Shown: positions 9,935-13,313 of the stretch, piece after piece
Position numbering within the stretch: the stretch's first letter is position 1
How the letters are laid out: the number at the start of each line of letters is the position of its first letter
NCBI GenBank assembly: GCA_963705215.1
Contig: CAVPJI010000002.1
Location: 49,818 to 113,817, forward strand
DNA from: an uncultured Chloroflexia bacterium
Lineage (GTDB): Bacteria; Chloroflexota; Limnocylindria; Limnocylindrales; CSP1-4
Length of the DNA: 64,000 bases
Direction of reading: 5' to 3'
Position numbers and translations under genes: made by a program
The notes under the pieces: model-generated
The model's database searches: none
Told to the model about the DNA's origin: nothing
What the model saw: only the letters and a program-made list of their open reading frames with translations

Positions 9935-10010
9935 GCCCGTGCGCTTGGCGGTCGATTCCGGCCTCCCGATGTACGCTTCCTCACGCCAGCGGCGCCCCGC
10001 AGACCCCCGG

Positions 10011-11372
10011 ATGGACCCACCGATGACCGACCCTGTCCCCCCCTCGCTCGAGCCCACGCTCGCCGCGCCGGAGCCCTCGATCGCCGCGCCGGAGCCGGCC
10101 CGCCGCCGGCGCCTCGGCTCCCTCCAGCTGGCGCTCACCGCCGTCGCGATCCTTGCCGGCGCGGCCCTCTTCCTGTCCGGCTTCTCGCTCGGCGCCCGAA
10201 CCGCGACGACACCGGGAACGCCCGCCGAGGACGCCGCGCGGTTCGCCCCGTTCTGGGACGTCTACGAGTCGATCACGAAGAGCTACGTCGGCGACGTCGA
10301 CCGCGAGAAGCTCATCCAGGGCGCCATCGACGGGATGGTCGGGGCCCTCGACGACCCGTATTCCGCGTACATGAGCCCCGACGAGCTCCGCAGGGCCCGC
10401 GAGTCGATCGGCGGCGAGTTCTCGGGTGTCGGGGCCGAGGTCACCACGCGCCCCACGGATTCGGCGGCCGACGCGTGCGCAACGATCGGCCCGTCCTGCC
10501 GGCTCGTCGTCGTCGCCCCGATCGACGGCTCGCCCGCGGAGCGGGCGGGGATCCGGGCGGGCGACGTCATCACGGCGGTCGACGGGCGCACCGTAGACGG
10601 CGAGACGCTCGACGAAGCCATCGCGCGCATCCGCGGCCCACGTGGCTCGACGGTCACGCTCACCCTGGTGCGCGACGGCAGGGCGCCGTTCGATGTGCCG
10701 ATCGTCCGCGACACGATCGTCTCCCGGCAGGTCGAGACGCGCGACCTCGCCGGCGGTACGGCCACGTACATCCGGGTCTCCGGGTTCTCGGACAACGCGG
10801 CGCGCCAGTTCGCGGCGGCGGTCCGGGCCGCCCGCGGGCAGGGTGTCACGAAGCTGGTCGTGGACCTGCGCGACAACCCCGGCGGCTACGTGACCGCCGC
10901 GCGTGCCATCGCCAGCCAGTTCATCGCGGAAGGCCCCATCTTCTGGGAGGAGGCGGCCGACGGCACCCAGGTGGCCACGAACGCTGAGCCCGGCGGCGCG
11001 GCGACGGGTGCCGACGTCCGGGTCGCCGTCCTCGTGAACGGCGGCAGCGCGTCGGCGAGCGAGATCGTCGCCGGCGCCCTGCAGGACACGGGGCGCGCCA
11101 CGCTGGTCGGCGAGACGACGTTCGGCAAGGGCACGATCCAGCAATGGGTGGACCTGACGGCGGAGTCGGGTGGATTCCGCCTCACGATCGCGAAATGGCT
11201 CACCCCCGACAAGCGCTGGATCCACAAGCAGGGGCTCGAGCCGGATGTCGTGGTTCCCGCGGACGGCGCGGGGGCCGGCGAACCCGGGCCGACAGGCGAC
11301 CCGTACATCGATGCCGCCCTCGACGCCCTCGGTGTGACGGCTTGGCTCCCGGGCCTCTCGCGCGCCGCCTGA
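10011..11372 (+). CDS. S41 family carboxy-terminal processing protease with PDZ domain (start 10011 or 10023)
   Basis: LDDPYSAYM, PIDGSPAERAGI, DLRDNPGG, NGGSASASEIVAGALQD, GETTFGKG. Confidence 0.92.
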   Translation: MDPPMTDPVPPSLEPTLAAPEPSIAAPEPARRRRLGSLQLALTAVAILAGAALFLSGFSLGARTATTPGTPAEDAARFAPFWDVYESITKSYVGDVDREKLIQGAIDGMVGALDDPYSAYMSPDELRRARESIGGEFSGVGAEVTTRPTDSAADACATIGPSCRLVVVAPIDGSPAERAGIRAGDVITAVDGRTVDGETLDEAIARIRGPRGSTVTLTLVRDGRAPFDVPIVRDTIVSRQVETRDLAGGTATYIRVSGFSDNAARQFAAAVRAARGQGVTKLVVDLRDNPGGYVTAARAIASQFIAEGPIFWEEAADGTQVATNAEPGGAATGADVRVAVLVNGGSASASEIVAGALQDTGRATLVGETTFGKGTIQQWVDLTAESGGFRLTIAKWLTPDKRWIHKQGLEPDVVVPADGAGAGEPGPTGDPYIDAALDALGVTAWLPGLSRAA

Positions 11373-11442
11373 CCACCGCTCCGGCGCCGGCCGGCCGCGC
11401 CCGCGTGGCGCGCGCCCACTTCACCTGGGCGCGTCCGGGGTC

Positions 11443-11471
11443 TTGCCAGATCGAACGACGTCTTGTACGGT
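11443..11471 (+). promoter_or_regulatory. sigma70-like promoter of small intergenic transcription unit
   Basis: TTGCCA (11443-11448), 17 nt, TACGGT (11466-11471). Confidence 0.55.
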
Positions 11472-11499
11472 TCGCCCGACCGAAAGGAGGTGATGTGCA

Positions 11500-11553
11500 G
11501 TGACAGACAGTAGTCCGCGTCGTTGCACCACCTCGCCGGAGGCGGCCGCCTGA
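11500..11553 (+). CDS. candidate 17-aa small ORF MTDSSPRRCTTSPEAAA within a structured RNA
   Basis: Extended SD AAAGGAGGTGAT (11483-11494) then GTG; SD pairs with 11524-11534. Confidence 0.4.
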   Translation: MTDSSPRRCTTSPEAAA

Positions 11554-11589
11554 CGGACGCCCCAGCGGGTGGGCAACCCGAAACGCGTT

Positions 11590-11620
11590 CGAACGCCGGT
11601 CCCGATGGGGCCGGCGTTCG
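11590..11620 (+). terminator. strong GC hairpin (terminator-like, no U-tract)
   Basis: CGAACGCCGGTCCC-GAT-GGGGCCGGCGTTCG, 14-bp stem including one G-U pair. Confidence 0.6.
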
Positions 11621-11731
11621 TGCGTCCGGAGCGCACCTGCGCGATGATCTCGAGAGCAGTCGTGGCCGTTCGCGCCGCCACCGCCCGCGCCGCGGCCGCG
11701 CCCGCCCCACCACGAAGGAGCAGTCGACCCC

Positions 11732-12196
11732 ATGGGCGAGAAGACCATCGCCCTCAACCGCAAGGCGCGCCACGAGTTCCACGTCGAGGAGACGTTCGAG
11801 GCGGGCATCGTCCTGACCGGGACCGAGATCAAATCGATCCGCGCCGGCCACGTCAGCCTCCAGGAGGCCTTTGCCCGGATCGATCGCGGCGAGGCCTGGC
11901 TCGTCGGCGCCCACATCGCCCCGTATGCGACGGGCAACCGCTACAACCACGAGGCGAAGCGGACCAGAAAGCTGCTCCTCCACAAGGACGAGATCCACGA
12001 GCTGCTCGGGACGACGAAGTCGAAGGGCCTGACGCTCGTGCCCCTGCGCCTGTACATCGACAGCCGCAGCCACGCCAAGCTCGAGATCGGGCTCGCGCGC
12101 GGCAAGCAGCTCCACGACCGGCGCCGCGACATCGCCGAGCGCGACGCGAAGCGCGACATCGCCCGCGAGATGGCCGACTCCCGCCGGGGGCGCTAG
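11732..12196 (+). CDS. smpB: SsrA-binding protein SmpB
   Basis: NRKARHEFHVEETFEAGIVLTGTEIKSIR, RTRKLLLHK, GKQLHDRR; SD AAGGAG. Confidence 0.97.
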   Translation: MGEKTIALNRKARHEFHVEETFEAGIVLTGTEIKSIRAGHVSLQEAFARIDRGEAWLVGAHIAPYATGNRYNHEAKRTRKLLLHKDEIHELLGTTKSKGLTLVPLRLYIDSRSHAKLEIGLARGKQLHDRRRDIAERDAKRDIAREMADSRRGR

Positions 12197-12939: not shown

Positions 12940-13313
12940 GGGGATGCGTGGTCTCGACGGGGCCCCGCAGCCCGGGAACGCGAGCCGAGGATGCCGCTCT
13001 GGCCTCGTTAAAAGGCGGCAAAACGAAGTAACTGCCAACAAGCAGCCTGCTCTCGCTTACGCCGCTTAGGCGGTAGAGTGAGCGTGGAAGCGGCCTCCCC
13101 TCCGTGGGCCGTGGAAGCGTCAATCAGCGGAGGTGCAGCCCCGGCAAGCGCCGCGTAGCCGGGAGTCAAGCCCGATCTAGGGACACGCAGCTGGGCCGGT
13201 CATCGCCCCTGCCGATGGGGGTGGGCCGGCCGAGATCAAGCATCGGACACGCTCGTAGTGGGCCCGGGTCACGGGTTTCGGACGGGGAGTTCGACTCTCC
13301 CCCATCTCCACCA
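12940..13313 (+). ncRNA. ssrA: tmRNA; tag (A)ANKQPALAYAA encoded at 13034-13069
   Basis: Acceptor stem GGGGATG/CATCTCC with G3-U pair, T-loop TTCGACT, 3' ACCA; GTAACT-GCC resume context; near smpB. Confidence 0.96.

Follow-up and report, generated by a model that had tools for sequence, protein, structure and literature searches.

The locus and its start signals

This study concerns a short element in the intergenic gap upstream of smpB, on a 64,000-nt stretch of DNA (the window; contig CAVPJI010000002.1 of assembly GCA_963705215.1) from an uncultured Chloroflexota bacterium of the class Ca. Limnocylindria. The gap is 359 nt long (window positions 11373-11731) and separates a gene for an S41/PDZ carboxy-terminal protease (9939-11372; Pfam S41, 1e-49) from smpB (11732-12196, forward strand; Pfam SmpB, 3e-60), which begins 102 nt past the element's tail. 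The tmRNA gene (12940-13313; Rfam, 113 bits; tag ANKQPALAYAA) follows about 740 nt downstream of smpB, and ftsE/ftsX-like open reading frames (ORFs), judged by eye, precede the protease gene. At gathering thresholds the tmRNA is all that Rfam reports in the window. The element is missed by gene callers and by Rfam thresholds alike and is an annotation gap. An initial annotation had proposed an unannotated, self-contained structured small-transcript unit here, with a masked extended Shine–Dalgarno (SD) sequence and a short ORF; class-wide conservation and covariation support that proposal.

All features of the element lie on the forward strand. Its promoter (11443-11471) consists of a -35 hexamer TTGCCA (11443-48), a 17-nt spacer and a -10 hexamer TACGGT (11466-71), as the initial annotation had read it. 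Both hexamers are invariant or nearly so among 24 genomes of the genus, with a variable spacer sequence, and hexamers and spacing are kept across genera; in other genera and families the same geometry appears as TTGCGC-17-TAnnnT, followed after about 10 nt by GAAAGG. A scan for promoter and terminator consensus sequences flagged nothing at the element locus; so simple a scan passes over the promoter because its -10 hexamer matches the consensus at only 3 of 6 bases. The transcription start is predicted at about 11477-11479, which would place it 3-5 nt 5′ of a sequence complementary to the 16S rRNA.

This complement, GAAAGGAGGUGAU (11482-11494), matches the 3′ tail of the genome's own 16S rRNA perfectly over 13 nt. 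As DNA, GAAAGGAGGTGAT reproduces exactly, in reverse complement, the 3′ end of the 16S gene in this genome (...GGATCACCTCCTTTCT), and it occurs twice in the 2.5-Mb assembly, once in the element and once at the 3′ end of the 16S gene (...GCGGCTGGATCACCTCCTTTCTAAGGA). A complement of the 16S 3′ end had been claimed from the window's letters; the match to the organism's own 16S gene bears it out, and the proposed connection to the ribosome is plausible. The duplex with the 16S tail has a predicted free energy of -23.2 kcal/mol, compared with -10.3 kcal/mol for the ribosome binding site (RBS) of smpB. Its first five nucleotides, GAAAG (11482-86), are unpaired in both of the folds described below (unpaired probability 0.62-1.0), and most of the GGAGGUG core has an unpaired probability below 0.1, which makes GAAAG a candidate seed, or toehold, for the 16S tail. 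The 13-mer is invariant within the genus, and class loci carry GAAAGGAGGTG(A/G)T, with GGAAGG- in two of them. Its invariance even though GAAAG pairs with nothing in cis, together with its match to the genome's own 16S rRNA, points to a constraint exerted by the 16S tail. In Caulobacter, an SD sequence of any kind precedes only 24.6% of genes (PMC4117421), and this low share underlines how unusual extended SD sites are.

The mini-ORF (11500-11553) starts with GTG and comprises 17 codons before a TGA at 11551-53, encoding the peptide MTDSSPRRCTTSPEAAA; it lies where the initial annotation had put it and is retained class-wide. We compared about 190 unique loci gathered from the class, the phylum and other phyla. 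In nearly all of them an ATG or GTG, 3-7 nt past GGTGRT, opens an ORF that closes after 11-28 codons; a few pattern matches precede ordinary longer genes instead. Within the class the ORF occupies the same place at every locus, with lengths of 13, 14, 15, 16 and 17 codons in the families numbered f1, f2 and f4, and of 23-28 codons in family f3. By eye, the class peptide table holds at least seven length differences between lineages. All are multiples of three, and they sit in hairpin loops, where an untranslated RNA would accept any length; the stop codon, moreover, interchanges among TGA, TAG and TAA. Frame-preserving indels and stop interchange argue for translation of the ORF. For two alternative frames, ATG 11493 (6 codons) and GTG 11495 (2 codons), conservation was not found.

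The peptide itself is not conserved beyond what RNA pairing needs: its CTTS is encoded by UGCACCACCUC, the anti-SD mimic introduced below, and the recurrent peptide motif [ST]xE[VAM] corresponds to an internal GAGG. Like its orthologues it is hydrophilic, variable and rich in Ser, Thr, Cys and Arg, with no membrane segment. The C-termini vary as well (AAA, QGASA, QETAV and QELSA; EMAV and EAVR in other genera; also VSA). The terminal AAA, which the initial annotation had likened to a ClpXP degron, is present in only part of the genus, and the organism's own tmRNA tag ends in LAYAA, so that comparison is dropped. We also rejected an amino-acid-sensing leader, a role that Ser/Thr/Cys-rich peptides might suggest, because smpB and the genes next to related units (birA, greA and lysS) are unrelated to those pathways and because the compositional bias tracks RNA pairing.

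Two mutually exclusive folds

In the first of two folds (fold A), the consensus of 47 class-wide sequences comprises eight helices, H1-H8. H1, H2 and H3 form a hairpin (11487-11534) in which the SD core and start codon are bound by a stretch of the ORF that resembles the anti-SD, here called the anti-SD mimic (GUCGUUGCAC-CACCUC, 11519-34). In DNA letters, GAGGTG/GTGCAGTGAC (11487-11504) faces GTCGTTGCAC/CACCTC (11519-34), with a predicted free energy of -24.2 kcal/mol. Class-wide, 93-97% of the alignment cells in these helices are paired; the SD side is invariant, and the mimic side changes only from C to U, which keeps G-U pairs despite the amino-acid changes T to I and R to C. Occlusion of the SD by a strand within the ORF, as initially proposed, is borne out by this stability and by the class-wide pairing.

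Downstream, the last ORF codons supply the 5′ strand of H4 (GGA.GCG with an internal GGAGG, 11538-11544), which pairs with 11621-11627. H4 is the weakest helix, with 82% of cells paired and 5 of 6 pairs changed on both sides. The H5 hairpin (CCG/CGG, 11546-11556) displays the stop codon in its loop, CCUGA, as it does at those class loci whose aligned sequence was checked, and its pairs covary among CG, GC and UA. The strand r3, GCGGGUGGGCAAC (11565-11577), resembles an SD sequence and is called the pseudo-SD; in fold A it belongs to H7, with 11576-80. H8 is a G+C-rich terminal hairpin of 14 bp with the loop GAU (11590-11620; 11590-11603 with 11607-11620). This hairpin had been noted from the start, and all 14 of its pairs covary, with 97% of cells paired. 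It has no clear U-tract here, and a U-tract follows it in the lower-GC relatives L077, L080 and L089; H8 is probably an intrinsic terminator or a 3′-end hairpin. A conserved 3′ tail, UGCGUCCGG (11621-11629), pairs with the end of the ORF in fold A and with 11578-11588 in the alternative fold; its conservation reaches about column 205 of alignment A2. A further helix of the initial annotation, GGACGC (11555) with GCGTCC (11622), is disrupted by substitutions in three genomes (G011, G019 and G008), and in G019 the change at H5 pair 72-82 (CG to GC) preserves that pair. One f4 locus (L077, about 1570-1590) has, besides its in-ORF mimic, a second and perfect anti-SD copy, GCACCUCCC, beyond the stop codon.

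The covariation check that the initial annotation had called for was carried out across homologs. Across the 47 sequences, 92.0% of fold A cells are paired, compared with 79.5% in shuffled controls; 38 of 51 pairs are compensated by changes in both partners, and sliding the partners by 1-3 columns leaves 34-41% paired. A 198-nt stretch containing the element folds more stably than all of its shuffled versions (200/200; z = -4.4).

The second fold (fold B) gives the mimic another partner. The mimic strand GUUGCaCCACCuCGC (11522-36) pairs with the pseudo-SD strand GCGgGUGGgGCAAC (11565-77), the SD is freed and the 3′ tail swaps partner. For the RNA 11478-11632, folds A and B are predicted to be isoenergetic (-85.4 and -85.7 kcal/mol). 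When the class sequences are folded with the SD forced open, the free energy cost is about 0.4-12 kcal/mol (mean 4.3), and in most sequences with a parsable fold the mimic then finds a new partner about 35 nt downstream, GGGUG or GAGCG. Cognate duplexes of mimic and pseudo-SD average -16.3 kcal/mol, compared with -14.6 kcal/mol for non-cognate ones, and none of 5000 permutations did as well, in a test that does not control for phylogeny. In family f2 the two sequences are quite different, CAGUUGUACCGCCGCCUC pairing with GAGAGCGGUAAAAACUG.

We built two covariance models from the same 19 genus sequences, R1 with fold A and R3 with fold B as its structure. Distant members score as high with R3 as with the fold A model, or higher (f2: 45-57 bits, compared with 27-35 bits). 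In the fold B alignment 92.0% of cells are paired, compared with 74.7% in shuffles, and compensatory changes support 36 of 44 pairs, among them all 5 in the flank helix. Each alignment is biased towards the structure it was fitted to, though equally for both folds. Both mutually exclusive folds appear to be maintained.

Both folds leave H8 intact, which sets the switch apart from a classical terminator/antiterminator. The element shares with trpL-type attenuators a short ORF, exclusive helices and a terminator hairpin before a translation-related gene; unlike theirs, its helices exchange the SD, the anti-SD mimic and the pseudo-SD and leave the terminator hairpin untouched. We rejected an attenuator, since a search for an antiterminator competing with H8 found none and the alternatives in the two conserved folds involve only the SD, the mimic, the pseudo-SD and the tail; by eye, region r4 just upstream of H8 lies too close to pair with its 5′ strand. 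A riboswitch aptamer was rejected as well, as the junction nucleotides are not conserved across genera.

Distribution, neighbouring genes and known relatives

BLAST finds the element as a single copy, with 82-99% identity, in 23 of the 24 genomes of the genus, embedded in flanking intergenic DNA that cannot be aligned. In the oriented alignment the conserved block begins exactly at the -35 hexamer and stops about 10 nt past the terminal hairpin. Model R1 gives one full-length match per genome across family f1 and weaker matches in f2 (1.1-Mb genomes), f3 and f4; all four sampled families of the class thus carry the element, which the covariance models detect in every genome sampled from f1, f2 and f4 and in genomes sampled from f3. 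A broader model, R2, recovers every sampled class member and, more weakly, units in at least eight other Chloroflexota families. We also scanned genome contigs for the pattern GAAAGGAGGTGRTN{2,4}AGTG. The matches listed come from Limnocylindria, other Chloroflexota, many Alphaproteobacteria (GAAAGGAGGTGATCCAGTG...), Planctomycetota, Acidobacteriota and others, with one from a Gemmatimonadota genome, and most of those listed carry a mini-ORF and a terminal hairpin. Where inspected, the alphaproteobacterial sequences also have an anti-SD mimic (CCUGGAUC..GCCUC).

At all 48 class loci, tblastn places smpB directly downstream on the same strand. The S41 protease gene (ctpA-like) lies upstream in f1, f2 and f4; in f3 it is absent, and the adjacency to smpB is still kept. 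The spacer between element and smpB ranges from 4 to 223 nt and is 30 nt or shorter at about 12 loci from several genera and families. At L077 a U-rich terminator, CUCUUUCGUUUGUUUG, is followed 14 nt on by an smpB ATG without an SD, and at L085, L088 and L050 the smpB SD abuts the H4 tail strand. Spacers of 4-30 nt leave hardly any room for an smpB promoter; consequently, the hairpin would have to be leaky at these loci, with the unit as the 5′ part of the smpB mRNA. The element and smpB are probably co-transcribed in such short-spacer genomes.

Longer spacers hold motifs of their own. In this window, about 15 nt past the element, positions 11637-11650 read CTGCGCGATGATC (CTGGGGCATGATCC in relatives), a motif kept in about half of the genus; it might serve as a processing signal or as a -10-like element in a promoter of smpB's own. 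In another genus of the family, the spacers of seven loci (L052, L054, L056, L057, L058, L061 and L062) share a conserved (G/A)TGCGACACTGG, placed some 25-30 nt ahead of smpB, possibly an extended -10 promoter.

Outside the class the neighbours change. No smpB lies within 1.5 kb of the 17 Chloroflexota units from other classes. Three of these precede a gene for a birA-type biotin-protein ligase (L108, L117 and L119) and one is followed directly by greA and then lysS (L111), all checked with Pfam; four more show a birA-type or greA-lysS context by eye only (L110, L113, L115 and L118). The birA and greA-lysS contexts are a second conserved neighbourhood of related units. A locus of family f27 (L105, 1537-1635) matches the Rfam Thr operon leader at 41.6 bits, below the threshold of 55; terminator and overall structure are the probable cause, because the peptide of this locus, MSDQPIGITSGKVS, is not rich in Thr or Ile. 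In the gene contexts of Alphaproteobacteria a common neighbour was not found, and some units occur without any downstream gene on the same strand. In a Bosea sp. (L170, 3025-5632), about 100 nt separate the unit from a downstream RNase R-like gene on the same strand (RNB, CSD2 and S1 domains); the mini-ORF of L176 is identical to the one there. RNase R is a partner of trans-translation. The adjacency in Bosea may be coincidence, as other alphaproteobacterial contexts differ.

The closest published counterpart is the rre family of Hahn et al. 2017 (PMC5711450). There, the family is reported only from Alphaproteobacteria, as rreB in Bradyrhizobiaceae and rreR in Rhodobacterales, and its function is given as unknown; a literature search found no follow-up work on rreB. 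The Bradyrhizobium mRNA rreB measures 165 nt, of which 17 nt are complementary to the 16S rRNA, and its ORF starts with GTG and has 14 codons; the RNA sediments together with 30S subunits and, like rreB-egfp fusions, is translated weakly. No more than the 5′-most 5 nt of the complement are single-stranded, and the authors propose them as a seed; the stability and decay of rreB depend on the start codon. The RreB and RreR peptides are conserved within clades, yet the synthetic peptides are unstructured and their overproduction is without phenotype. The authors judge a ribosome sponge unlikely, given the copy number and the lack of an overexpression phenotype, and speculate that rreB traps ribosomes in a way that leads to cleavage and ribosome rescue (PMC5711450).

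Set against this account, the Chloroflexota element shares most of the architecture. It would be transcribed by itself, from its own promoter to its own terminator, as an RNA of about 150-165 nt, here deduced from the DNA; at its very 5′ end it carries an over-long, perfect complement to the 16S tail, of which only the 5′-most 5 nt or so are single-stranded and the remainder lies in a conserved first hairpin; and a GTG-started small ORF stands directly behind the extended SD (14-18 codons in rre; 17 here and 13-17 in f1, f2 and f4). In both, the peptide is conserved only within a lineage, and the genomic context within a family but not beyond. The differences are that the complement measures 13 nt instead of 16-17 nt and ends 5 nt before the GUG rather than covering its first base (past the 13-mer the element reads GTGCA against CCAGC, so the longer complement of rre is not present), that the host belongs to the Chloroflexota, and that the element is fixed class-wide directly upstream of smpB. 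The second, exclusive fold of mimic and pseudo-SD is documented for the Chloroflexota element; the sections consulted of the rre account do not mention one (PMC5711450). ORFs of 14 aa (MS.KRCHLAGIAR) and 18 aa (MSRVILERGVGTVRGAVA) from the same pattern scan match RreB and RreR, as described there, in length, start codon and host lineage. At Rhodobacterales rreR loci (L124, L133, L137, L142, L149, L156 and others), a pseudo-SD GAGGUG lies inside the ORF and an anti-SD mimic, CCACCUCC, about 130 nt downstream, just before the terminator. A design of three elements may be general, with varying layout.

In Rfam, CC2171 (RF01867), a Caulobacter sRNA that is the Rfam entry of the alphaproteobacterial rre family, is the only family to match the window's element, at 29.1 bits (E 2e-4; the best match in the genome) against a gathering threshold of 75; relatives score 24-28 bits. 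The alignment spans the full model, including cGAAAGGAGGUGAU..CAGUG and the terminal hairpin, but the middle domain stays unaligned, and the Rfam consensus has the SD unpaired. Conversely, alphaproteobacterial rre/CC2171 loci align to R2 over its full length and score 20-48 bits; the pre-selected pattern inflates these scores, but the best matches gain clearly more than it accounts for. CC2171 is seen as a discrete sRNA by Northern blot in Methylorubrum. Ms_IGR-5 (RF02471), an actinobacterial sRNA expressed as a discrete unit in Streptomyces, has no match in window positions 11300-11800 at E<=10 and matches one f2 relative (L072) at 27.2 bits, below its gathering score of 45; its layout is alike, with a 5′ ACACAAGGAAGGAGGUGGU leader, the SD in the first hairpin, a second hairpin and a terminator. 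In the Rfam search named in the initial annotation, no known motif reaches its threshold at the element, and a sub-threshold CC2171 match is found. The element's standing as something undescribed, which that annotation had assumed, gives way to these matches and to the architecture of the published rre small mRNAs.

A further likeness is to a 5′ stabiliser element. In the STAB-SD of the Bacillus cryIIIA message (Agaisse and Lereclus 1996), a 5′-proximal GAAAGGAGG reportedly binds the 16S tail of the 30S subunit. By that comparison the 5′ module here might stabilise a downstream message such as smpB; the STAB-SD is not known to have a start codon and ORF behind it or to be self-masked, unlike the Chloroflexota element.

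A proposed ribosome-docking mini-mRNA and its rivals

We consider it likely that the element is a stand-alone gene for an rre-type small mRNA, a ribosome-docking mini-mRNA, in Ca. Limnocylindria. In kind it is an ordinary member of the published class, as a new variant from the Chloroflexota that combines a two-state design with linkage to smpB throughout its bacterial class. From a sigma-70-like promoter, the gene would produce an RNA of about 150 nt with the 13-nt 16S complement at its extreme 5′ end and the GUG ORF 5 nt on. In the closed state (fold A), the in-ORF copy of the anti-SD would mask the SD core and the start codon, leaving GAAAG alone single-stranded. A free 30S subunit could dock its 16S tail on the GAAAG seed and invade the SD-masking hairpin by strand displacement; binding through a single-stranded seed is carried over by analogy from the rreB experiments. 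The displaced mimic would be captured by the pseudo-SD GCGGGUGGGCAAC, yielding fold B with its SD free, and translation of the mini-ORF would unzip what remains of the fold as far as the stop codon in the loop of H5. The 16S duplex is predicted at -23.2 kcal/mol and the hairpin at -24.2 kcal/mol, and the net opening cost is predicted at a few kcal/mol because the pseudo-SD captures the mimic. The RNA would toggle between a closed, ribosome-free and an open, ribosome-engaged state, in which engagement rather than the peptide would count. Its output on smpB is speculative and might take the form of read-through, of mRNA stabilisation by a 5′-bound 30S subunit or of unmasking an RBS that abuts the H4 tail. 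We infer the 30S docking, the translation of the ORF and any effect on smpB.

Several points weigh against the rre-type assignment. The transcript and its ends, read-through into smpB and translation are predictions from the sequence. Rfam scores far under threshold mean that homology to rre is architectural, and it could be convergence. The complement, at 13 nt, stops short of the start codon, so the 'too strong to clear' behaviour of rreB may not apply. A promoter of its own for smpB could fit into the 102-nt spacer of this window, and in genus g3 the conserved TGCGACACTGG motif leaves space for one. The terminator hairpin is left alone by either fold, and an attenuator logic is not evident. 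Lastly, the shuffle controls for both covariance alignments ignore phylogeny.

Among the alternatives, a dedicated cis-acting leader of smpB is the one that overlaps the rre-type assignment, and we rate it as a tentative possibility that we favour less. Such a leader would sense ribosome or rescue status through terminator read-through, STAB-SD-like stabilisation by the 30S subunit or unmasking of the RBS as H4 opens. The unbroken adjacency to smpB, which holds in f3 with its different upstream neighbour, is what one would expect of it, yet adjacency inside one class can be plain inheritance, and the same kind of unit stands before birA, greA, lysS or unrelated genes in other Chloroflexota classes, Alphaproteobacteria, Planctomycetota and Acidobacteriota. 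The dozen or so loci without room for a separate promoter, the smpB SD at the H4 tail strand (L085, L088 and L050) and the U-rich terminator of L077 with its SD-less start 14 nt on fit a leader well; spacers of up to 223 nt, some with promoter-like motifs, fit it less, and neither conserved fold offers an antiterminator alternative to H8. The speculation of Hahn et al. on trapping, cleavage and rescue (PMC5711450) and the Bosea unit upstream of an RNB-domain gene also lean towards it. A more specific form, in which the mini-mRNA is a sentinel substrate of ribosome rescue and a 30S or 70S ribosome captured by the 13-nt super-SD and the self-masking switch reports free-ribosome availability or rescue capacity, feeding back in cis on smpB by read-through, 5′-end stabilisation or RBS unmasking, seems to us doubtful, though worth stating.

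Each of the other alternatives seems improbable. If the micropeptide of 13-17 aa were the product, for example as a binder of the ribosome or of a protein, with the RNA structure merely tuning its synthesis, one would understand why frame and stop are kept everywhere and why the peptide is conserved within lineages (MIDSTRSCTTSQEMAV is identical at at least nine loci from several f1 genomes, and RreB and RreR are conserved in clades). However, the conserved residues coincide with pairing constraints (CTTS with the anti-SD mimic), C-to-U changes that preserve pairing as G-U are tolerated although they alter the amino acid, the C-terminal halves are free to vary, between families and phyla there is no similarity, and synthetic RreB and RreR are unstructured and without phenotype when overproduced (PMC5711450). 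We find equally improbable a purely non-coding sRNA with an untranslated ORF, acting by base pairing in trans or as a decoy that titrates the 30S subunit or a protein binding the 16S tail. The Rfam classification of CC2171 and Ms_IGR-5 as sRNAs seen as discrete bands or transcription units, the compact structure and the masking of the SD in fold A would agree with it; frame-preserving indels and stop interchange would be unexpected without translation, rreB-egfp fusions are translated, if weakly, and Hahn et al. consider ribosome titration unlikely from copy numbers and the absence of a growth effect (PMC5711450). Hardly credible at all is a type I toxin mRNA, an analogy drawn in the initial annotation, or a chance structure. 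SD sequestration and 5′-3′ pairing do recall hok-type mRNAs, and G+C-rich DNA folds readily, but the peptide is hydrophilic and variable and lacks a membrane segment, where a toxin's would be hydrophobic and membrane-active, and an element that is single-copy, belongs to the core genome, covaries across the class and outdoes 200 of 200 shuffles in stability does not look like chance.

For the rre-type mini-mRNA, the finding has consequences beyond this locus. RNAs of the rre/CC2171/Ms_IGR-5 type are widespread, expressed and ribosome-binding, yet without known function. That the class extends past the Alphaproteobacteria with a complement of only 13 nt shows its essential part to be the seed and the SD core, and from the conserved switch, built of SD, anti-SD mimic and pseudo-SD, one would predict that the 16S tail triggers strand displacement. 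The class-wide lock to the ribosome-rescue gene smpB echoes the published speculation that ribosomes trapped on rreB need rescue. If the element does report ribosome or rescue capacity to smpB, the linkage of rre, smpB and ssrA would be the first functional context for this multi-phylum group of RNAs.

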